From Alphaproteobacteria bacterium (lineage in GTDB: Bacteria > Pseudomonadota > Alphaproteobacteria > GCA-2731375): a stretch of DNA of 64,000 bases. Location of the stretch: positions 1,568,001 to 1,632,000 of the forward strand of contig CBDDPY010000002.1 of NCBI GenBank assembly GCA_965232515.1. Reading direction: 5' to 3'. Below, one piece after another: positions 1 through 10,221 of this stretch (position 1 is its first letter; every line of letters begins with the position of its first letter). Both the position numbers and the translations under genes were made by a program. The notes under the pieces were generated by a model. It searched no databases. It had not been told where the DNA came from and saw only the letters and a program-made list of their open reading frames with translations.

Positions 1-526
1 GGCCCGCGCGGCGCAGATGCGCGTTCAACTGGATGATGAAGTTGAAGATGTTGAGGTCGTGGCGCAGGAAGACGTCGTCGGCGAGATCGTCGATGCGGCA
101 CGGGCGCAGCGGCACGGTCTCGGCCGTGAAGCCGGGCACGTTGTCGGCGATAAAGGCCAGGATCTCCGTGCCGATATGGAAGTGGCGCAGGATCAGGTAG
201 TTGGCTTCCGCGCAGACGAAGTTGCGCAGGCCCCAGCAGATCAGCCGGTGCAGCCGGCGCGAGGAATGCAGGCGGTCTGGGACGCAGATCCGGATCACCG
301 TGTTGAGCACGATGAAGGTCCGCGCGGCCGGCCGCATGAACGGCAGCAGCGCCGCGCGCGACCGCCGCCGCATGCCGCGCAGCAACGCGGCCTTGGCGGA
401 ATCGTGGATCGCGACGCTGCCGTCGAGATAGAAGGCGAGCCAGGGATCGGGATCGTCGCGGTCGACATTCGTCGGGTCGAAATCGGCCGGAAACGCGCCG
501 ACGTTGTCGCGCCGGTCGGGTGTCAT
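1..526 (-). CDS. Uncharacterised protein, 3'-truncated by the window edge (resembles DUF6999-type proteins, from memory)
   Basis: Not in the ORF track because it runs off the edge. Manual translation from ATG at 526: MTPDRRDNVGAFPADFDPTNVDRDDPDPWLAFYLD...ANYLILRHFHIGTEILAFIADN...FLRHDLNIFNFII. Open to position 1, high GC3, 14 bp after the stop of the upstream gene. Confidence 0.8.
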   Translation of the reverse strand, partial: MTPDRRDNVGAFPADFDPTNVDRDDPDPWLAFYLDGSVAIHDSAKAALLRGMRRRSRAALLPFMRPAARTFIVLNTVIRICVPDRLHSSRRLHRLICWGLRNFVCAEANYLILRHFHIGTEILAFIADNVPGFTAETVPLRPCRIDDLADDVFLRHDLNIFNFIIQLNAHLRRAG

Positions 527-540
527 GGTCTTGAGCTCGC

Positions 541-2385
541 TCATATGTTGCCGATCTCCTCGAGCTGCAGGCGGTAGAGCCGCGCCGTGACCTTGGCGGT
601 CTTGACGATGTCCTTGACGACTTGCGGTGTCAGCATGTCGCTGTCGAAGGCGTCCCACATCTTGGCGAGATGGTCCTCGTCGTTCTCGCCGTGATAGAGC
701 ATGAAGCTGACCTGATCCGACGTGAGGCCGAGCTGTTGCTGGCAGGCGCGGCCCCATCTGAGTGCCATGCGGTTGCCGAGGCCTTCGATCACGAACATCG
801 CGCCGAGCAGATCGATGGGGTTCTCGCGGCTCGCCCGGTGGAACATCCAGGCGGACAGCGCTTCCGAGCCGATGTTCTTGTCGGCGCACTGGATGTCCTC
901 AAGCCGGCCGCCGACCGCCACGTAGTTCCGCTCCAGCATCTGGAAGTCGCGGTGTTCTTCGTGGGCGTGGCCGAGGAAGGTTGAGCGCAGGTCGAAGGCG
1001 TCGACGGTGATGCTGGAGGCGGCCCGCGCGATCCAGCGCGCGCCCTCCATGACCTGCTGGCGCAGGTTGAGCAGGATCAGGCGGTAATCCTCGAGGCGCA
1101 GCTTGCCGCGGTTCAGCTTGTCGATGATCGGCACGGTGTTGAGGTCGGCCTCGAACTCGGCCCAGACCTGCGTCAGTTGCCGATAGAGCGACGTCTTGAG
1201 ATCGTCGGTCACGGGTACGGCCAGGGTTGGCGGCGGCTGGTCGGCCTCGACCGGGTGGCTCTTCGTCCGCTCACCGACCACGGTAAGCAACATCATCGAG
1301 ACGATGAAGCGGCCGCTTTCGGGCACGACGCAGAGGACCTGCTGACCCGGCGCGAGCGGACCCTCGTTGAACAGCTCCTCCAGCATGATGAAGATCGACG
1401 CCGAACCGGTGTTGCCCTTGCGCGCCAGGTTCGTGAACAGGCGGTTCTCGTCGATGGGACAGCCGGCGCGTTCGGCGGCTTCGAGCATTTTTCCGCGGAA
1501 GACGTTGGACGAGAAATGATAGAGCGCCCAGTCGACCGCCCGCGGGTCGATGCGCCCGGCCTCGACATGGTCGAAGTAGCGCTCGATGCCGAGCAGCACG
1601 ATGTTGTCCAGGAGCTTCAGGTCCTGGCGCAGGTGGAAGGCGCCGTCGGCGACCGCTTCCGACAGCGTCGGATAGTTGCTCCACGGCAGCGCCATGCCGC
1701 CGTCGTCGCATTTGCGCGCGCCGCCATACATGCAGGTGTCGAGCCGGTCGGCGTAGGAAATGAGATCCACGAACTCGACCTTCAGCGACAGGCCGCGTTC
1801 GTTCGGGCGGTCCTCCATGACCAGCGCGCCGGCGCCGTCCGACAGCATCCAACGCAGGAACTCGGCGTCCATGCTGGTCTTGCGGTCCTCGAAATAGCCG
1901 GCGCGCAGGAAGCGGCTGGCGAATTCCGAGGCGCAGACGATGCCGTTCTGCTTGTCGCCCGAGACGATGTTCGACCAGGCCGATTTCATGGCCATCATGC
2001 CGCTGGCGCAGAAGCTGCCGAAGCTGGCGACTTCGGTCGCCGGCAGGCCGAGCTCGCCATGCACCATGCTGGCGAAGCCGGGCGCCATCAGGTCGCCCTG
2101 CGAGGCGGCGGCGGCGAGGAAGCCGACGCGGTCGGGCGACAGCTCGCTGCGAGCGAGCGCGTCGCGGACGGCTGATGCGGCCATCTCGGCGTTGGTATGG
2201 CGGGGGCGCCCGTCCCGTCCCAGCGCGTAATGGCGCGTCTCGATGCCGTTCAGCTTCAGCGCCTCGTCCTTGAAGCGCCGCTGCCGGCGGTCGAGGGGGC
2301 CGAGATAGGCTTCCATCTCGTCGTTGCCAACGGGATCGCCGGGCAGGAACTTGCCGACCGCGTTGATGTAAGCCGTGCGTGCCAT
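541..2385 (-). CDS. KAS III (FabH/DarB/StlD-like) ketosynthase fused to a C-terminal heme-oxygenase-like diiron (iron-containing redox enzyme) domain
   Basis: Cys-His-Asn triad in SFCASG, YHFSS and GNTGSAS, plus LSDGAGA and PESGRF. The C-terminal ~220 aa helical domain has HAHEEHRD, MFVIEG and HGENDEDH. Confidence 0.85.
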   Translation of the reverse strand: MARTAYINAVGKFLPGDPVGNDEMEAYLGPLDRRQRRFKDEALKLNGIETRHYALGRDGRPRHTNAEMAASAVRDALARSELSPDRVGFLAAAASQGDLMAPGFASMVHGELGLPATEVASFGSFCASGMMAMKSAWSNIVSGDKQNGIVCASEFASRFLRAGYFEDRKTSMDAEFLRWMLSDGAGALVMEDRPNERGLSLKVEFVDLISYADRLDTCMYGGARKCDDGGMALPWSNYPTLSEAVADGAFHLRQDLKLLDNIVLLGIERYFDHVEAGRIDPRAVDWALYHFSSNVFRGKMLEAAERAGCPIDENRLFTNLARKGNTGSASIFIMLEELFNEGPLAPGQQVLCVVPESGRFIVSMMLLTVVGERTKSHPVEADQPPPTLAVPVTDDLKTSLYRQLTQVWAEFEADLNTVPIIDKLNRGKLRLEDYRLILLNLRQQVMEGARWIARAASSITVDAFDLRSTFLGHAHEEHRDFQMLERNYVAVGGRLEDIQCADKNIGSEALSAWMFHRASRENPIDLLGAMFVIEGLGNRMALRWGRACQQQLGLTSDQVSFMLYHGENDEDHLAKMWDAFDSDMLTPQVVKDIVKTAKVTARLYRLQLEEIGNI

Positions 2386-2460
2386 GTTCGGATCCTTTGC
2401 TGCCCAACGGCGCGCCGTCGCCGGCGATCGCCAAGGTTGCAGAGCGGTGTTGCGTGGGCG

Positions 2461-3348
2461 TTAACGGAAGCGGCCGGTCTCGAGAAACGAGAGGGTCGCG
2501 GCAATGGTCTCGGGCGCATCGGCGATGAAGGTGTGGATCGCCGGCACCACCAGGAAATCGCGCGCCGCGTCGAGGCGGGTCTCGTCGACGGTGACGATGC
2601 CGTCGTTGTCGCCCTCGAGCGCCGGGTTGAAACCGGTGCGGTCGCCGCGGCCGCCGGCGATGACGCCAATCTCGAAATCGGCCGGCGGCGCGGCGAAGCG
2701 GCTGCCGTCGGCGAGCTGGCCCGCGGTCGGACCGCCGATGGCGTTGAACAGGGCCCAGTCCTCGAGCGCGGCGGCCAGCGCCGAGCCGCGGTTCGGTGGG
2801 GCCAGCATGACCGCGCGGCCGAGCGCGATCCGGTCCCGCCAGTCGGCGTCGCCGGCGACCGCCTGGCGTAGAACGATGCCGCCCAGGCTGTGGGTAACGA
2901 AGGAGACCCGCTCGACATCCTCCAGGCCGTCGAGGACGGCGGTCAGGTGGCGGGCATGGCCGGCGATATCCCGGGTCAGGCTGGGATAGGCGAGCGCGAT
3001 TGTCTCGTAGCCGGCTTCGCGCAGCGCCGGCTCCATGGTGGCGAAGAGGCGCGGCGACCGGCCCATGCCATGCAGCAGGACGACGACGTGGCCGCTCTCG
3101 GGCCGGAGCCCCTCGTCCGCGCGAAGCCGCTGGAGCTCAGCGGCGCATTCGGCGCCGTCGCCGAAGTGTCGGACCGCGCCCGCCGGATCGACCAGCTGGC
3201 ACCAGCCGCCGATCACATGCGCCCGCACCTGCCAGCCGGCATAAGCCGTGCGGCCTTCCCAGAGCTGGGTCCGGTCGAGCTGCACGGCGAGGGCGGCGAG
3301 CGCGATCAGGACGATGGGGAGCACGATCGAGAGGTGGCGGCGGGCCAT
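2461..3348 (-). CDS. Alpha/beta hydrolase (lipase/esterase-like) with N-terminal membrane anchor
   Basis: LLHGMGR oxyanion loop, THSLGG nucleophile elbow, APPNRGS, NDGIV and HTFI. Start placed at MARRHLSIVL. Confidence 0.85.
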   Translation of the reverse strand: MARRHLSIVLPIVLIALAALAVQLDRTQLWEGRTAYAGWQVRAHVIGGWCQLVDPAGAVRHFGDGAECAAELQRLRADEGLRPESGHVVVLLHGMGRSPRLFATMEPALREAGYETIALAYPSLTRDIAGHARHLTAVLDGLEDVERVSFVTHSLGGIVLRQAVAGDADWRDRIALGRAVMLAPPNRGSALAAALEDWALFNAIGGPTAGQLADGSRFAAPPADFEIGVIAGGRGDRTGFNPALEGDNDGIVTVDETRLDAARDFLVVPAIHTFIADAPETIAATLSFLETGRFR

Positions 3349-3468
3349 GGGGTTGTTTCCGTTCGGATGAGGCGGGCGATTGCCGTTGGATCTATATGTG
3401 GGCGTTAATGAATGTTGTTCAAGAATGAATTTCGACACGGCCGGCCAGTCTTCAAATGCGCCAGGGTC

Positions 3469-3597
3469 TGGATTGCCGGGTCAAGCCCGGCAACGACGAA
3501 TTGGTTGCGATTTCAATATCTTATACGTCATGCCGGCGAAGGCCGGCAGCCAGGACACCGGCCGTGCCAATGGACCCTGGCCTGCGCCAGGCTGACG
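3469..3597. repeat. Cluster of three CGTC-type REP palindromes
   Basis: TGGATTGCCGGGTCAAGCCCGGCAACGACG (3469-3498), CGTCATGCCGGCGAAGGCCGGCAGCCA (3526-3552) and TGGACCCTGGCCTGCGCCAGGCTGACG (3571-3597): short hairpins tagged with CGTC/GACG. Confidence 0.75.
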
Positions 3598-3621: not shown

Positions 3622-4650
3622 CTAGTCGCCCTGGGCGATGCGTTTGGCGAGGTCGAAGAAGGCGCGTTTGCGGGGAGAGCCGATGGTCCAGTCGACGGGC
3701 ACGCTCTGAAACCCGCACTCCGGGCCCTCGCCCTCCAGGCGGTAGTCGAAGAGACCCCAGGAGGCGTATTCGCCGACGGCGGCGAGGAAGTTGTTGTCGG
3801 GCCGGTCGAAGCCGAAATGGTCGTCCTCGTTGAACAGGATCGGCATGGGCCGATAGCCCTCGACCTGCCGCGTCTGCCGCACGATGTCGCGGATGCGGTC
3901 GGGATCGTCGATATGGTTGCCGTGCAGCAGGATGAAGTCGCTGGCCGCGACCACCTTGGCGCCGGGCACGGTGCCGCCGCCGTAACTGGTGCCGACGAGC
4001 AGGCGCGCGCCGTCCTTCGTGCGGGCCTTGGCCTGTTCGATCAGCGCATGCACGCCGTCCGGCATCAGCAGCGGCTGCTGGTAGCGGACGTCGCACTCGT
4101 TGTTGATCTCCATGAGCACGTTGCCGTAGCCGCCGGCCAGCACCCAGTCGACGGCGTTGTCGACCCCGCGCCGGATCGCCGCCTCGTCGCGCAAGTTCTG
4201 TTCCTGTCCGAAATAGAACAGGCCCAGGATCACCACGATGCCGATCTCGTCGGCGGCGTCGAGGATGCGCGCGAGGCGCGCCATGTAATCGTCCCGTAGC
4301 CCGCCGTCGGGATCGATGGCGGAATTGATCCAGGGCTGCGCCTTGGAATAGCCGTAGGGGCTGCCGCCCTGCAGGTTGACGGTGACCGCGAGAATGCCGT
4401 GGTCGCGCCAGGACGGCATCGCGGCGATGAATTCCGATGTGTTGCGCTCGGCATCCCATTGGCCTGTATCCGGATAGGCCCAGCGGTCGCGCGTCTCGGG
4501 GTTCAGGTCGTCGAAGATGCCCTGCACCATGCGCGTGTTGAGCAGCAGTCCCTCGACCCGCCCGCCTCGCCAGGTGGCGCCTTCATAGGTGACCCGACCG
4601 TTGATGAAGAACTGATCGCCGCGGATCTCGACACGCGTCTTCGCCGCCAT
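3622..4650 (-). CDS. Uncharacterised TIM-barrel protein, glycoside hydrolase clan GH-A-like
   Basis: 342 aa with MEINNECD (Asn-Glu acid/base-like motif) and PILFNED (nucleophile-like); no signal peptide. Confidence 0.6.
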   Translation of the reverse strand: MAAKTRVEIRGDQFFINGRVTYEGATWRGGRVEGLLLNTRMVQGIFDDLNPETRDRWAYPDTGQWDAERNTSEFIAAMPSWRDHGILAVTVNLQGGSPYGYSKAQPWINSAIDPDGGLRDDYMARLARILDAADEIGIVVILGLFYFGQEQNLRDEAAIRRGVDNAVDWVLAGGYGNVLMEINNECDVRYQQPLLMPDGVHALIEQAKARTKDGARLLVGTSYGGGTVPGAKVVAASDFILLHGNHIDDPDRIRDIVRQTRQVEGYRPMPILFNEDDHFGFDRPDNNFLAAVGEYASWGLFDYRLEGEGPECGFQSVPVDWTIGSPRKRAFFDLAKRIAQGD

Positions 4651-4764: not shown

Positions 4765-5565
4765 TCACGTGGGCGCGGGACGCGTGTCCGGGTCACTACG
4801 CGCCAGCGGCACGACGATTGCGCTGCCGTCTGCTCGCCCATGGTAGGCGCGGATGCCGTAGCAGCGGGCCAGGATGTCGGGGACGAGCACGGTCTCGGGC
4901 GGTCCCTCGATCTCGATCCGCCCGTCGTGCAACAGCGCCAGGCGGTCGCAATAGCGGGCGGCCAACGTCAGGTCATGCATGACCGCGACCACGCACGTGC
5001 CGGCGGCGGCGCGTGCGCGCAGTGTCGCCATGACGTCGAGTTGGTGCGCCGGATCGAGCCCCGCGACCGGCTCGTCCGCAAGCAGGAGTTTCGGCTCGCC
5101 GGCGAGCGCGCGGGCCAGCAGGACGCGCGAGCGTTCGCCGCCCGAGAGCCGGTTCATGGGCCGATGCCGAAACCGCGCGACATCGCAGACGTCGAGCGCC
5201 CGCGCCACCGCCCCGCGATCCGCCGCCGACGGCGCGTCCCAAAGACCGCGATGCGGCAACCGACCGAGCATGACGAGCGTCTCGACGGTCACCGCCCAAT
5301 GGTGCTCGCCGCCCTGCGGCAGATAGGCGACGGTGCGCGCGCGTTCCCGCCGACCTGTGCGGGACAAAGGCCGGCCGGCGATACGGATCTCGCCGCCGTC
5401 CAACGGCAGCAGGCCCGCCAGGGCGCGCAACAGCGTCGTCTTGCCGGCGCCGTTGGGGCCGATCAGTCCGACGACCTCGCCCGACCCGACTTGCAGATCG
5501 ACGCCGGCGAGGATGAGGGTGTCGCCGAGCGAGACGGACACGGCCTTCGTCATCAACAGCGTCAT
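4765..5565 (-). CDS. btuD: Cobalamin/Fe-chelate ABC transporter ATP-binding subunit
   Basis: GPNGAGKT, LSGGE, LLADEP, MHDL. Start ATG overlaps the permease stop (ATGA). Confidence 0.88.
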   Translation of the reverse strand: MTLLMTKAVSVSLGDTLILAGVDLQVGSGEVVGLIGPNGAGKTTLLRALAGLLPLDGGEIRIAGRPLSRTGRRERARTVAYLPQGGEHHWAVTVETLVMLGRLPHRGLWDAPSAADRGAVARALDVCDVARFRHRPMNRLSGGERSRVLLARALAGEPKLLLADEPVAGLDPAHQLDVMATLRARAAAGTCVVAVMHDLTLAARYCDRLALLHDGRIEIEGPPETVLVPDILARCYGIRAYHGRADGSAIVVPLARSDPDTRPAPT

Positions 5566-6584
5566 GACAGCGTCCGCCGGTAGCGCAGGACGAGCAACAG
5601 GAAGAACGGCGCGCCGACAAGCGCGGTCAGCACGCCGAGCTGGAGCTCGCGGCCGGGCGACAGCAACCGCACGGCGATGTCTGCGGCGAGCGTCAGCACG
5701 GCGCCGCCGAGCGCGCTCGCCGGCAGCAGGGCGCCCGGCCGATGGCCGACCAGCGGGCGCAGCAGATGGGGCACGACCAGACCGACAAAGCCGATGGCGC
5801 CGGCGACGGAGGTCGCGGCACCGACGGCGAGCGCGGTGCCGAGCACGATCCGGCGCCGGACGGCGCGCAGTCCGACGCCAAGCGTGCGGGCGGCGTCCTC
5901 GCCGAGGGTCAGCGCATCCAGCGCCCGGCCCGACGTCGCCAGCAGCAGCCAGCCCAGCAGCATGAACGGCAACGACAGCCACACATGCTCGAAGCTACGG
6001 TCGGCGAGCGAGCCCATCAGCCAGAACATGATCTCAAGCGCGGCGAACGGATTGGGCGCGAGGTTGAGCGTCAGCGACGTGAGTGCGGCGGCGAAGCTGG
6101 TGACGGCGATACCGGCGAGGATCAGCGTCAAGGCGCCGCCGCCCCGCCCGGCCAGCATCTGAACGACGAGCACGCCGAGACCGGCGCCGGCCATGCCGCC
6201 GAGCGGCAGCGCCAGCGCGAACAGACCGGCAAGCCCGGTGTGGAAGGCCAGAACGGCGCCGAGGGAGGCCGAGGCCGACACGCCGATCAGGCCCGGCTCG
6301 GCCAACGGATTACGCAAGAACCCCTGCAAGGCGGCGCCGGCGAGACCGAGCGTGGCGCCGATCGTCAGCGCCAGCAGGGCGCGCGGCAAGCGGATTTCCC
6401 AGAGGATCAGCGCGGCGGTCCCGGCGTCGCCCGTCAGCAGAGACGCCGGAATCTCCGACAGACCGATTGCCGCCGGGCCGATCAGCAGCGAGGCCAGGAA
6501 CGTGAGCAGCGCAGCCAGGATCAGCAGTGGCAACAGCAGACGCTCGATCATGGACGTCCGCGATGGCGCCGCGGCGACCGTCAT
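5562..6584 (-). CDS. btuC: FecCD/BtuC-family ABC permease
   Basis: EIRLPR, RNPLAEPG and GAIGFVGLVVPH motifs; B12 riboswitch context. Confidence 0.9.
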   Translation of the reverse strand: MTVAAAPSRTSMIERLLLPLLILAALLTFLASLLIGPAAIGLSEIPASLLTGDAGTAALILWEIRLPRALLALTIGATLGLAGAALQGFLRNPLAEPGLIGVSASASLGAVLAFHTGLAGLFALALPLGGMAGAGLGVLVVQMLAGRGGGALTLILAGIAVTSFAAALTSLTLNLAPNPFAALEIMFWLMGSLADRSFEHVWLSLPFMLLGWLLLATSGRALDALTLGEDAARTLGVGLRAVRRRIVLGTALAVGAATSVAGAIGFVGLVVPHLLRPLVGHRPGALLPASALGGAVLTLAADIAVRLLSPGRELQLGVLTALVGAPFFLLLVLRYRRTLS

Positions 6585-7393
6585 CGGCTTGCCGCCTCGG
6601 ACAGACGCGCGATGGCTTCGGCGACGAAGGGCGTGCCGCAGACCCAGAACCGGTCGGGCACCCGCACGACCGGCTTCTCGGCGAACGCGCGGCGCAGGGC
6701 GGGATGGCGAAACGCTTCGTTAGCACGGGCCGGGCTGTCATAGACCCGCCCCATGATCAGAATCTCGGGTGCGGCCGCCAGCAGGGTTTCGAGCGGCAGC
6801 TGGCCGGTGCCGGCGATCCCGAGCGCGTCGGCGAGATTGCGAAACCCCGCCGCGGCGACAATGGCGCTGGCAAGCGTGCCCCGCCCCGAGGTCCAGCCGT
6901 TCGCCCAATAGAGCGCGGCGAGCGGGCGGCGGTGCGTCACCGACGCATGGCGGTCGAGACGTGCGTCGAAATCGGCGATCAACTGGTCGCCCCGCGCGGC
7001 CTCGCCAACCGCCGACGCGACACGACGGACGTTCGTGCGGATGTCGTCGAGCCCGTTGGCGACCGGCACGTCGAGAACCGGATAGCCGAGCTTGCGCAGC
7101 AGGAACACGGTCGGTCGGGTCGTGAAGGCCCCGGCGACGACGAGGTCGGGTCGCAGCGGCAGGACCTCCTCGGCCAGGCCATGGTTCAGATGCAGACCGT
7201 TCGCTTTCTCGGCCAAAACCGACGACCGCGGATCGGCGGCGAGATAGCTGACCGAGGCAATGCGTTCACGGTCCGCCAGCAGCATCACAAGCTGGTCGGT
7301 GCACAGGTTCATCGAGACGATGCGCGCCGGCCGATCCGCCGCCGCCGTCGCCGGCAGCAGCAGCAACAGCGTCAGAAGCCTAATGACTGCCAC
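6581..7393 (-). CDS. btuF: Cobalamin-type periplasmic binding protein
   Basis: Signal peptide, then RIVSMNLCTDQL and a C-terminal WVCGTP. GTG start at 7393 overlaps the upstream stop. Confidence 0.85.
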   Translation of the reverse strand: MAVIRLLTLLLLLPATAAADRPARIVSMNLCTDQLVMLLADRERIASVSYLAADPRSSVLAEKANGLHLNHGLAEEVLPLRPDLVVAGAFTTRPTVFLLRKLGYPVLDVPVANGLDDIRTNVRRVASAVGEAARGDQLIADFDARLDRHASVTHRRPLAALYWANGWTSGRGTLASAIVAAAGFRNLADALGIAGTGQLPLETLLAAAPEILIMGRVYDSPARANEAFRHPALRRAFAEKPVVRVPDRFWVCGTPFVAEAIARLSEAASR

Positions 7394-7979
7394 CGAAGCC
7401 CTTGCCCTCTTCGTCGAGCGCCTCCGGTTCGCGGCCGAGCCAGGTCCGGGCGACGGCACGCCAGACCGAGAGACGGCTGAAGTCCGGGACGTCGGCGATA
7501 AGGTCGTCGTCGGTCAGGAACGGATTGGGGAAGAACACCGAGATCATCGGCTCGTCCTTGCCGTTCCACATCTCGAAGCCCCAGCTCAACGGCTTGCCGT
7601 CGCGGCCGAAGCCGCGAAAGATCTGGGCCTTCGACGGTTTGCGGTGCGCCCGCAGCACCGGCGGCGTCGGGTTCGATTTCGAGCCCATGTTCTCGCCGAT
7701 GCAGAGATGGAAATGCCCGCCGCCGCCGAAATGCACCGTCAGATAACCGTCGAACAGCGTGATCTTGCGCGGCGCGGACGGGCAGCGGAACTCGTAGGCC
7801 GCGCCCTGGATCAGCGGACCGAACACCAGCCCCCGCCAATGCTTCTCGAACAGCTCGCGCAGGAACGGTTCGAGAAACGCTTCTTCGGCCGGCAGCGGCC
7901 AGACCTCGCGGGTTCGACGCCCCTCGGCGTCACGGACGGTTTCAGGTTCACTGTCGATCCGCCAGTTGGCCGCTGTCAT
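7380..7979 (-). CDS. Uncharacterised cytoplasmic protein inside the btu operon (possible HutX/ChuX/HemS-like fold)
   Basis: 199 aa from ATG at 7979 with a GAGGGAAGG RBS. Motifs FGPLIQGAAYE, DGYLT, HFHLCIG, SWGFEMWNG and FPNPFL. Confidence 0.8.
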   Translation of the reverse strand: MTAANWRIDSEPETVRDAEGRRTREVWPLPAEEAFLEPFLRELFEKHWRGLVFGPLIQGAAYEFRCPSAPRKITLFDGYLTVHFGGGGHFHLCIGENMGSKSNPTPPVLRAHRKPSKAQIFRGFGRDGKPLSWGFEMWNGKDEPMISVFFPNPFLTDDDLIADVPDFSRLSVWRAVARTWLGREPEALDEEGKGFGGSH

Positions 7980-7996
7980 GTCCGAGACCTTCCCTC

Positions 7997-9961
7997 TTAG
8001 TTGTCGGCCGGATACGGGCCGAGCTTGATGCGGATGCCGACGTAACCGGCGATGCCGGGCGTGCCGAAGCCGAAAACTTCCTGGTAATCGTCGTCGAGCA
8101 GGTTCTCGCCACGGGCAAAGATTTCGACGCCATCGGCGACGGCATAGCTGGCGTTCAGGTTCACCAGCGTGAAGCTGCTCAGCGTCACGTTCCGTCTGGT
8201 GAGCGGAGAGAAGCTGTCGAAGACGATGTCGTCCTGTCGGCCGTTGAAGCGGAAACCCAGATTCACGTCGCCCGGCTTGCCGAACAGCGCGAAGGCGTGA
8301 CCGGCGTTGATGCTGGCGATATGCCGGGCGCGGCGCACGAGTTCCGTGCCGTCGGCATCCTCGCCGTCGGTGAAGGTATAGGCGGCGTCGAGACGCAGGC
8401 CCGGCCATGGTTCGGCCGACGCCGTGACCTCGATGCCCTGGATCTTGCTGGTGCCGGGCAGATTGACGGCCGTGTTGCCGCCGCCCTGGATCAGATCTTC
8501 GATGCGGTTGTTGAAGTAGGTGACGTCGACGATCAACCGGTCGCCGAGCAACGCCTGCTCGACGCCGACATCCCAGCCGAGGCTTTCCTCGGCCGTGAGG
8601 TTCGGATTGCCGGTGAAGGTCGGCGTCGACCCGAACAGCTCGAACAGCGTCGGGTTCTTGACGCCGCGGCCGACGCTCGCGTGCAGCCGGGTGCCGGTCG
8701 GGTCGTGCAGATAGGCCGCTGTACCGCGATAGGTGCTCTCGTTGTCGAACAGATCGTCGTTGTCGTCGTAGCGGAGGCTGCCGGAGAGGAACAGCCGATC
8801 CCAGAGGCCGATGCGATATTCGCCGACATAGCCATAATTGACGATATCGACGCCATTGGGTCCGGCGAAGCCGCTTTCGGTGAACTGCTCTTCCCGCTCG
8901 CGCTCGGCCGCCAGCGTCACCGTGTGCTCGGCACGGGCGATGTCGGACGTCGTGAACAGGACGTTGATCTGGTAGTCGAGCTTGGACTTCTCGCCCTCGG
9001 ATGTGAATGTCTGCGCGCCGGTGCGGTCGAAGAAATCGCGTTCGTTCTCGACGTGGCTGGCGTTGGCGATGTGCTGCCACGCGCCGTCGAAGAGATCGAG
9101 CCGGGCGCCGATCCGGCCGTAGCGCTCGAGTGTGTCGGACTCATCGTCGGAATCGATCGCGTTGACGACGGCCGCGTCGGCATCGCCTTCCCGCTCGCTC
9201 TCGACCAGCATGCCGACGGCGTCGATCTCGAGGTTGTCGAACGGCCGAAATCCGAGCTTCAGCCGCGCCGTCGTGTTGTCGTAGCCGTCGTCCTCGGCAT
9301 TGCCGTTGGCGGCATCCGCGACGGAAACGCCGTTGGTCGCGAGCCGGTTGACGGTGGCGCTGACAAAGAACCGCTCACCACCATAGCCGAGACCGAGCAG
9401 GCCATCGCGGGTCGTGAACGACCCGGCCTCGCCACGCGCGGTCAGCGTCAGTCCCGGTTGCGGCCGCCTGGTGACGATGTTGACGACGCCGCCGATAGCA
9501 TCGCTGCCGTAGAGCGCGCTCTGCGGTCCACGCAGCACCTCGATGCGGTCGACCTCGGCATTCAGGAGGTTGGCGAAATCGAACTCGGATCCGCCGGCCG
9601 GATTGTTGACCTCGATACCGTCGATCAGCACCAGCGTCTGGTTGCCTTCCGCGCCGCGGATGCGCAATTGCGTCAGCGCCCCGACCGGCCCCGCCCGATT
9701 GACGGCAACGCCCGGAACGTCGCGCAGCACGTCGGAGACGACGCGAACCTGACGTCGTTCGAGCTGCTCGCCGGTGATCACCGTGACGGCGCTGCCGATT
9801 TCGTCGGCCGGCAGCGGCATACGGCTGGCCGAAACGACGATTTCGGGCAGCCGGAGCGCCGAATCGTCGGCCATTGCCGCAAGGTTAGATACGCCGACTG
9901 TCACGGCGATCAGGCACGCCAACAGGCGATTTAAGACATATCGATGTGAAGAAACGAACAT
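7997..9961 (-). CDS. btuB: TonB-dependent cobalamin receptor
   Basis: TonB box EIVVSASR, plug motif IEVLRGPQSALYGSDAIGGVVNI, NPNL and ENLLD; lies downstream of a cobalamin riboswitch. Confidence 0.9.
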   Translation of the reverse strand: MFVSSHRYVLNRLLACLIAVTVGVSNLAAMADDSALRLPEIVVSASRMPLPADEIGSAVTVITGEQLERRQVRVVSDVLRDVPGVAVNRAGPVGALTQLRIRGAEGNQTLVLIDGIEVNNPAGGSEFDFANLLNAEVDRIEVLRGPQSALYGSDAIGGVVNIVTRRPQPGLTLTARGEAGSFTTRDGLLGLGYGGERFFVSATVNRLATNGVSVADAANGNAEDDGYDNTTARLKLGFRPFDNLEIDAVGMLVESEREGDADAAVVNAIDSDDESDTLERYGRIGARLDLFDGAWQHIANASHVENERDFFDRTGAQTFTSEGEKSKLDYQINVLFTTSDIARAEHTVTLAAEREREEQFTESGFAGPNGVDIVNYGYVGEYRIGLWDRLFLSGSLRYDDNDDLFDNESTYRGTAAYLHDPTGTRLHASVGRGVKNPTLFELFGSTPTFTGNPNLTAEESLGWDVGVEQALLGDRLIVDVTYFNNRIEDLIQGGGNTAVNLPGTSKIQGIEVTASAEPWPGLRLDAAYTFTDGEDADGTELVRRARHIASINAGHAFALFGKPGDVNLGFRFNGRQDDIVFDSFSPLTRRNVTLSSFTLVNLNASYAVADGVEIFARGENLLDDDYQEVFGFGTPGIAGYVGIRIKLGPYPADN

Positions 9962-10221
9962 TGACGGCCCCCTTCGGTCTTGCCGGTTCAAGATCTGAGT
10001 GGAGGCGCATGACGGCCCGTGCCGCCGGCGCCCGACGACGGAAACCGACGTCGCGGCCGAGCGGAACGGCCAGCCCGATTCGATCGAGCCTTGAACGTTT
10101 CAACGGTCCGGGAGGAATTTCACCCACGACCAAAACCCCCAGCAGCCACGCGTTTCCGCGCGCCACCGCAAACGGGTTTCCGTCCCACCGACACACCCCG
10201 GACCGTGGTTGGGTGACGCTG

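Follow-up and report, generated by a model that had tools for sequence, protein, structure and literature searches.

The window analysed here is a 64,000-nucleotide stretch of an alphaproteobacterial genome (Alphaproteobacteria bacterium, contig CBDDPY010000002.1; G000:C2:1568001-1632000 in our numbering), and at its left end, on the reverse strand, it carries a gene that joins a StlD/DarB-like ketosynthase to a heme-oxygenase-like oxidase domain. DNA left of the window was taken from the same genome. The gene proved to be a fused version of a conserved three-part unit, which consists of the ketosynthase, the oxidase and a protein of the family DUF6999. To the reading that these parts make up a biosynthetic module for a form of head-to-head acyl condensation that requires O2 and does without DarA we give an even chance. 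What would be new here is a heme-oxygenase-like dimetal domain and a fold-orphan protein replacing DarA in a DarB-type condensation.

A conserved module of ketosynthase, oxidase and DUF6999

The fusion gene is a single open frame of 614 aa, window 541..2385 (-), which starts with ATG, ends with TGA and is preceded by the Shine-Dalgarno-like sequence AAGGA. Its GC content at third codon positions (GC3) of 0.89 is of the coding type for the host genome (65-70% GC). All motifs listed in a preliminary description of this DNA (SFCASG, YHFSS and GNTGS in the ketosynthase; HAHEEHRD, VIEG and HGENDEDH in the oxidase) were found in the translation of this frame, and the helical domain that it had put at about 541-1200 lies at about 544..1200. 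The linker reported there as Pro-rich (residues 371-395) is moderately so, with 5 Pro in 25 residues. Both its length and its sequence differ among 21 aligned homologs, it is poorly confident at the beginning of the C-terminal structure model, and the gene boundary of the split forms described below coincides with it.

The same architecture recurs far outside the host. Our protein search scored the 8000 candidates that had the most words in common with the query, and the best 120, query included, were considered. These proteins are 602-656 aa long and cover 99-100% of the query at 56-100% identity; at least 119 full-length proteins, 119 of these best 120, carry both the ketosynthase and the PF14518 marks. 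A locus scan with one genome per species yielded 46 loci, 32 of which contain both domains. The two lie in one frame in 29 of these 32 foreign loci, as adjacent open reading frames (ORFs) in different frames in L030 and L033, and broken across three frames in L034. Loci with a name span nine phyla; the named records of the locus scan belong to Pseudomonadota, Acidobacteriota, Bacillota (Paenibacillus), Myxococcota, Bdellovibrionota, Cyanobacteriota and Planctomycetota. Since split forms occur, a lost stop codon could mimic a fusion, and the preliminary description had itself named a sequencing artefact as a way in which it could fail. That the fusion arose by misassembly or frameshift from two neighbouring genes is nevertheless refuted by this recurrence in many phyla and independent assemblies, by a linker that is in frame and of coding-type GC3, and by contigs from other runs, about 95% identical, that span the junction region with no frame break there; we regard the chance of such an artefact as negligible.

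The ketosynthase-oxidase fusion is facultative, as both split and rare triple-fused forms occur. Besides the host, seven relatives of the same class carry DUF6999, and in these the ketosynthase and the oxidase are fused in two and encoded by separate adjacent genes in five. For four of the split loci Pfam confirmed the separate genes, and for the fifth it did so for two of the three. In four metagenomic proteins (P0136, P0229, P0392 and P0394) a single chain comprises the ketosynthase region together with DUF6999, with the oxidase domain reaching the Pfam threshold in three of them, and in another (P0393) a fatty-acid desaturase is fused to DUF6999; each of these five is a single-member cluster in which gene-calling errors are possible. 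The true conserved unit is the three-part module. Two of the split modules, L065 and L066, lie amid housekeeping genes for cytochrome bd oxidase, ribosomal protein L10 and MscL, in genomes of only about 2.2 Mb (G051) and 1.5 Mb (G378). The families PF22523 (DUF6999) and PF14518 were also detected in the control genome of Caulobacter vibrioides.

The preliminary description had a partner gene begin 14 bp downstream of the fusion gene. This start was misplaced: the ATG of the DUF6999 gene (544..542) overlaps the TGA of the fusion gene (543..541), so that the frame starts inside the fusion stop codon as ATGA, window 544..541 (-), and the ATG at window 526 is a second in-frame start. The gene passes the left edge of the window, ends at G000:C2:1567606 and has 939 bases in total, with a GC3 of 0.91. 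Its complete product of 312 aa matches PF22523 at E 4.6e-115 and 383.8 bits (against 27) over profile positions 2-275 of 275. By tblastn, DUF6999 is encoded downstream of the fusion and in the same orientation at 28 of the 32 foreign loci, and it was not found at L003, L008 and L021, where contig ends cut the locus. Within the host's class it was found in 8 of 401 genomes, host included, and in the host's family in 0 of 32 genomes; in all seven other carriers of the class it occurs only beside ketosynthase and oxidase genes, both immediately upstream. The retrieval of the left flank and the survey of neighbourhoods that the preliminary description had suggested thus gave a partner that is complete and conserved beside the fusion.

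DUF6999 is itself a family without a recognisable fold. Its predicted model is helical (predicted local distance difference test, pLDDT, 86.4), and its conserved residues are H99, R120, H121, H162, D163, D214, E220, D245, E246, H269, H286, E291 and H294. Foldseek against the PDB returned no relative (best E 0.64), VIA-align against 48,161 chains gave a best Z of 4.1 and none of 5 or more, and the ESM Atlas gave only unnamed clusters, at 0.92. A PDB profile search (best E 1), NCBIfam (no match), hhalign against the alignment of the oxidase domain (probability 0.1) and BLASTP against DarA (E 3.3) likewise revealed no kinship. No stretch of transmembrane-grade hydrophobicity is present, the maximum Kyte-Doolittle mean over 19 residues being 1.2. 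A similarity between the desaturase and DUF6999 (31 residues, E 7e-5, in three sequences) was taken as chance. The family comprises 3921 clusters at E <= 0.001.

The proposed mechanism rests mainly on what the module has in place of DarA. Our tblastn searches for DarA started from the product (311 aa) of the gene upstream of a true DarB, which scores 647 bits. In 11 of 11 loci that have the ketosynthase only (DarB type), the gene immediately upstream of it encodes a DarA homolog, and in the same database none was found at the 32 fusion or split loci (0/32). With this single query, no DarA homolog was found in the host genome either, which is 96% complete. According to a 2019 review (PMC6836626), DarB converts 3-oxoacyl and 2-enoyl thioesters to carboxy-cyclohexanediones, which are the substrates of DarA and are decarboxylated during aromatisation; PMC13748660 describes the same division of labour. 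The former also notes that cyanobacterial 'DarA-less' DarB homologs exist whose products may not be carboxy-cyclohexanediones (PMC6836626).

Genes of lipid type accompany some modules. A membrane fatty-acid desaturase gene stands between the fusion gene and DUF6999 in L006, L014, L015, L023 and L021 (the host genome has no homolog of it by tblastn at E <= 1e-5), and a fatty-acid hydroxylase gene lies upstream of the module in L028. TetR regulators occur upstream in L004, L015 and L063, and HAD hydrolases at three Blastocatellia loci. The remaining neighbours are unrelated housekeeping or defence-like genes. All-against-all clustering of the ORFs of 33 loci gave no other widespread real gene family beyond the fusion and DUF6999, and a Pfam search of 78 flanking ORFs gave no shared carrier protein, ligase or transporter. 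In three Blastocatellia metagenome-assembled genomes (MAGs; L007, L011 and L012), the module is directly followed by a TIR-domain protein and then a STAND NTPase, an arrangement that looks defence-type; the STAND NTPase of L011 carries TPR repeats.

Domain identities and the candidate metal site

Profile scans bore out the assignment of the N-terminal domain to ketoacyl synthases of type III (KAS III) and narrowed it. Residues 5-370 match the NCBIfam StlD/DarB family NF005293 with an E of 1.1e-113 and 380.2 bits, below its cut-off of 450, and the DarB model NF053539 with 334 bits, below its cut-off of 550; the true DarB of locus L042 scores 647 and 575 bits, respectively. The FabH models are not reached (PRK09352, 83.9 bits vs 249; TIGR00747, 65.8 bits vs 292), and the host genome has a separate FabH-like gene elsewhere. 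Among solved structures StlD (5gk0), a stilbene ketosynthase, is by far the best match, with an E of 3.6e-75 over residues 1-370. The KAS III triad, Cys126 (in SFCASG), His290 (in YHFSS) and Asn325 (in GNTGS), is invariant in 21 of 21 aligned homologs and aligns with that of StlD and of 7 DarB-type sequences. In an alignment of the fusion clade with these 7 sequences and the host FabH, R178, S292, N319 and E356 are common to the fusion and the DarB type and not to FabH, and R158 distinguishes the fusion clade from the DarB type. Glu154, considered as a DarB-specific marker, was dropped since the host's own FabH carries it too.

We also built a quick tree of 33 rows, from which the solved StlD is absent and whose root is the long FabH branch. 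Its 11 ketosynthase-only rows group together (SH-aLRT 100), and every fused or split row falls outside their clade. Because its scores fall below the curated cut-offs and the tree places it outside the DarB clade, the fusion ketosynthase appears by sequence to be a sister lineage of DarB/StlD and not a member of that family by curated criteria. With the DarB/DarA and StlD/StlC pathways the module shares its nearest ketosynthase family, the Cys-His-Asn triad and the clade residues that FabH lacks, whereas the fusion loci have a heme-oxygenase-like domain and DUF6999 where the aromatase DarA or StlC stands.

At the C-terminal end, residues 482-604 pass the Pfam profile PF14518 (Haem_oxygenas_2) with 36.4 bits against a cut-off of 28.9, as do the oxidase homologs of the split forms. 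An AlphaFold2 model of residues 383-614, built on a 32-sequence alignment, is all-helical with a pLDDT of 94.0 and a predicted template modelling (TM) score of 0.89. Foldseek against the PDB ranked 3dde first (TM 0.82), followed by CADD (TM 0.80) and then TenA, HmuO and UndA (TM 0.72). VIA-align gave Z 26.2 for 3dde (root-mean-square deviation, rmsd, 1.9 over 217 residues), Z 24.0 for CADD (rmsd 2.0 over 209 residues), and Z 20.8, 20.4 and 19.9 for HrmI, FlcD and UndA. In a domain profile search 3dde was matched at E 1.3e-18 and MboA at E 0.066. Taken together, the model and these matches indicate that the domain has the helical-bundle fold of heme-oxygenase-like diiron oxidases (HDOs), as the preliminary description had supposed. 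The closest solved structures, 3dde (Sden_3740) and CADD (Chlamydia CT610), are stand-alone proteins of about 230 aa each, unlike the fusion. CADD acts in p-aminobenzoate synthesis; nothing in the fusion data points there. The oxidase domain family is small: a set of 1.84 billion proteins contains 366 representatives at E <= 0.001, and many of these representatives are fragments of fusions.

The candidate metal ligands are strongly conserved. They lie in HAHEEHRD (residues 473-480), in VIEG (Glu534) and in HGENDEDH (residues 565-572), and the three helices that bear them read H-x3-E-x2-D, Glu and H-x3-D-x2-H, in that order. H473, E534 and H565 are invariant in the 21-sequence alignment, and E477, D480, D569 and H572 are each found in at least 90% of the 21 homologs. 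Judged by helix spacing and homology, these seven residues would face one cavity. PMC13133933, a paper on RohS, describes six conserved HDO ligands: core helix 1 provides a Glu and a His, helix 2 a further Glu, and helix 3 the HxxxDxxH motif. It adds that UndA, BesC and AetD require a carboxylate of the substrate as a seventh ligand. With 3dde the fusion oxidase has an H-x-H-E-E stretch, the core Glu and HxxxDxxH in common by profile match; E534 is aligned with the Glu of 3dde, and the invariant His473 sits four residues ahead of E477. The preliminary description had read the usual ExxH as ExxD in this protein. This stands, as E477 and D480 are near-invariant and 3dde, unlike the fusion, has its His at the position of D480.

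UndA acts on fatty acids, and the lipid setting is one likeness between it and the module. UndA, BesC and AetD share with the fusion oxidase the heme-oxygenase-like fold, the core Glu and HxxxDxxH, but they are too dissimilar for a sequence match, their helix 1 has Glu then His and not H-x3-E-x2-D, and the fusion oxidase differs in being fused or adjacent to a ketosynthase. SznF offers a precedent for a single polypeptide that combines an HDO domain with a second catalytic domain (PMC13133933); in the fusion, however, that second domain is a thiolase-fold ketosynthase, and the setting is acyl or lipid chemistry and not amino-acid N-oxygenation. In the literature searched, with subscription-only papers and supplements outside its view, we found no characterised pathway that matches the architecture, in line with the preliminary description.

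Proposed pathway and its alternatives

The module probably marks an uncharacterised biosynthetic pathway of lipid type. Because DarA is exchanged for the oxidase and DUF6999, we propose that the Cys-His-Asn triad of the ketosynthase would join two fatty-acyl thioesters. These would be drawn from primary fatty-acid metabolism. No carrier protein or acyl ligase is conserved alongside; some dar/brt clusters, too, have no dedicated carrier protein (PMC6836626). The condensation product would probably be a carboxylated cyclic or beta-keto intermediate resembling the carboxy-cyclohexanedione of DarB. The oxidase would then bind two metal ions through H473/E477/D480, E534 and H565/D569/H572 and oxidise this intermediate with O2, the substrate carboxylate completing the metal site as in UndA-type enzymes. 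Its likeliest step would be an oxidative decarboxylation/aromatisation, the role of DarA in canonical pathways, a suggestion that is tentative and that we rate as rather unlikely in this specific form. DUF6999, which is soluble and helical with conserved His, Asp and Glu residues, would supply a third, obligatory step, and the fused form may channel the intermediate between its two domains.

Several observations weigh against this proposal. The ketosynthase stays under both curated cut-offs (380 vs 450 and 334 vs 550 bits) and the DarB-type clade of the quick tree (SH-aLRT 100) leaves it out, and therefore its reaction may differ from that of DarB. Core helix 1 of the oxidase departs from the HDO pattern by Asp480 and the additional His473, the helix 2 Glu and the helix 3 HxxxDxxH being present, and the nearest fold relatives (3dde, CADD, TenA and HmuO) include proteins that are not dimetal oxidases. 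Two divergent sequences among the 21 aligned, P0137 and P0138, carry Gly in place of E477, Glu in place of D569 and Gln or Asn in place of H572, and therefore metal chemistry is not universal in the fusion family. One locus, L024 of a Bdellovibrio MAG, has the fusion and no DUF6999 within 8 kb downstream. The branch of P0137 and P0138 has lost several candidate ligands and retained the fusion.

The departure of the ketosynthase from the DarB clade and its sub-threshold family scores would also suit an enzyme whose head-to-head product is non-cyclic, such as a 2-alkyl-3-keto acid. The oxidase would decarboxylate this product oxidatively, in the manner of UndA, so that a hydrocarbon (a long-chain olefin or enone) would result in place of a resorcinol or cyclohexanedione. 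The fold matches include UndA (TM 0.72, Z 19.9), desaturase and hydroxylase neighbours suit a plain lipid product, and the products of DarA-less homologs 'may not be carboxy-CHDs' (cyclohexanediones; PMC6836626). We consider this route unlikely, as R178, S292, N319 and E356 are kept as in the DarB type and unlike in FabH, StlD is by far the best solved relative of the ketosynthase, UndA is not the nearest fold relative of the oxidase, and the neighbourhoods that we scanned showed no genes of the OleBCD type. If instead the oxidase acted ahead of the ketosynthase, it would prepare one of the substrates, such as a desaturated or hydroxylated acyl chain. Domain order and linkage are uninformative on the order of reaction, the module encodes no dedicated supplier of the enoyl partner, and HDO enzymes do desaturate and hydroxylate (PMC13133933). 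Fatty-acid synthesis, however, already gives 3-oxoacyl and 2-enoyl intermediates for DarB-type enzymes (PMC6836626), and the strict swap of DarA for the oxidase and DUF6999 better fits a downstream role, so that we find an oxidase-first order improbable.

A further view, in which the heme-oxygenase-like domain is non-redox, that is structural, substrate-binding, regulatory or a TenA-like hydrolase, and the ketosynthase works alone, draws on the odd pattern of core helix 1, on the two divergent representatives that lack several candidate ligands, and on a fold that is common to the non-dimetal proteins TenA, HmuO and PqqC (Z 20-22). Against it stand the seven His, Glu and Asp positions that are invariant or kept in at least 90% of the 21 homologs, spaced i, i+4, i+7 on two helices. 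The HxxxDxxH of HDOs is among these positions (PMC13133933), and CADD, the nearest characterised fold relative, is a dimetal enzyme; a non-redox domain thus appears very unlikely to us. The DarA-independent, O2-dependent condensation can be extended to a wider reading, which we hold with somewhat less than even confidence: a new pathway spread by gene transfer across at least nine phyla, into streamlined marine alphaproteobacteria and probably Caulobacter vibrioides, would make a new class of O2-dependent condensed-acyl lipid or signal without DarA, with DUF6999 as a metalloenzyme of new fold and H-x3-E-x2-D / H-x3-D-x2-H as a new variant of the HDO cofactor site.

Genomic surroundings and biological meaning

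The features of the locus are listed in the table. The alpha/beta-hydrolase gene lies 75 bases upstream of the fusion gene on the same strand. Among the fusion loci, a homolog of this hydrolase was seen only in L002 and L003, both from Kiloniellales MAGs, where it lies some 3.5 kb upstream, with one further match on the reverse strand in the truncated locus L043. The hydrolase is a lineage-specific neighbour outside the conserved core. A scan for promoters and terminators found no promoter-like site, and terminator-like sites are no more frequent than in shuffled sequence.

Features at the left end of the window (positions in the window) with the codons of the catalytic triad and the candidate metal ligands
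Feature	Position	Strand	Basis
DUF6999 gene, first 181 codons	1..544	-	PF22523 on complete protein
ATGA overlap, fusion-gene stop and DUF6999 start	541..544	-	read from sequence
Heme-oxygenase-like (HDO-type) domain, residues 396-614	544..1200	-	PF14518 and AlphaFold2 model
Candidate ligand codons H473, E477, D480	967-969, 955-957, 946-948	-	
Candidate ligand codon E534	784-786	-	
Candidate ligand codons H565, D569, H572	691-693, 679-681, 670-672	-	
Interdomain linker, residues 371-395	1201..1275	-	variable region in 21-homolog alignment
Ketosynthase domain, residues 1-370, StlD/DarB-like KAS III	1276..2385	-	NF005293 and StlD 5gk0 match
Triad codons Cys126, His290, Asn325	2008-2010, 1516-1518, 1411-1413	-	
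Alpha/beta-hydrolase gene, 325 aa, hydrophobic N-terminal segment	2461..3438	-	Pfam Abhydrolase_6 and DUF676
ABC ATPase	4765..5982	-	
FecCD permease	5562..6584	-	
Periplasmic binding protein	6581..7459	-	
TonB-dependent receptor	7997..9991	-	

Upstream of the module on the same strand lies an uptake operon (4765..9991, -); the position of an importer of the iron, siderophore, heme or B12 type by the gene of a putative diiron enzyme may be coincidence. Between this operon and the hydrolase gene is a 342-aa ORF (3622..4650, -) that neither Pfam nor NCBIfam matches and of which the related loci contain no homolog. On the other side, left of the window, a 606-aa fusion of a 7TMR-DISM sensor with an AraC DNA-binding domain and then a 457-aa adenylate/guanylate cyclase are encoded at L001 10749..14079 (-), about 500 bases downstream of DUF6999. 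These two genes are not conserved at other loci; they may regulate the module. Also left of the window, a low-GC patch at G000:C2:1555312-1556642 (L001 2312..3642) comprises two ORFs without a Pfam match. Their GC3 is 0.34-0.42, where neighbouring ORFs have 0.85-0.9, and the patch is probably of foreign origin.

The RNA libraries X4, X7 and X11, all from one study, contain contigs about 95% identical to window 1..3500, and therefore a close relative of the host bacterium is present in those samples. One piece spans window 356-1765, across the gene junction; such a contig does not prove a single transcript, and DNA may be present in these libraries. The contigs give a weak hint that the module of this relative is transcribed. 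All three libraries are labelled with an organism other than that given for the DNA data sets.

The module couples an HDO domain to a DarB-type ketosynthase and adds a partner without a recognisable fold. As a source of unusual O2 chemistry HDO enzymes are growing fast, and the module offers a new entry point to them; DarB-type ketosynthases produce bioactive resorcinols and signalling cyclohexanediones. The family is large, with DUF6999 alone accounting for the clusters counted above. Since the module is retained in genomes of 1.5-2.2 Mb, there are hints of a membrane, antioxidant or signalling role and not of a luxury metabolite. With its families detected in Caulobacter vibrioides, that organism is a tractable test system, and the products of 'DarA-less' DarB homologs, a matter raised in the 2019 review (PMC6836626), become a testable question.

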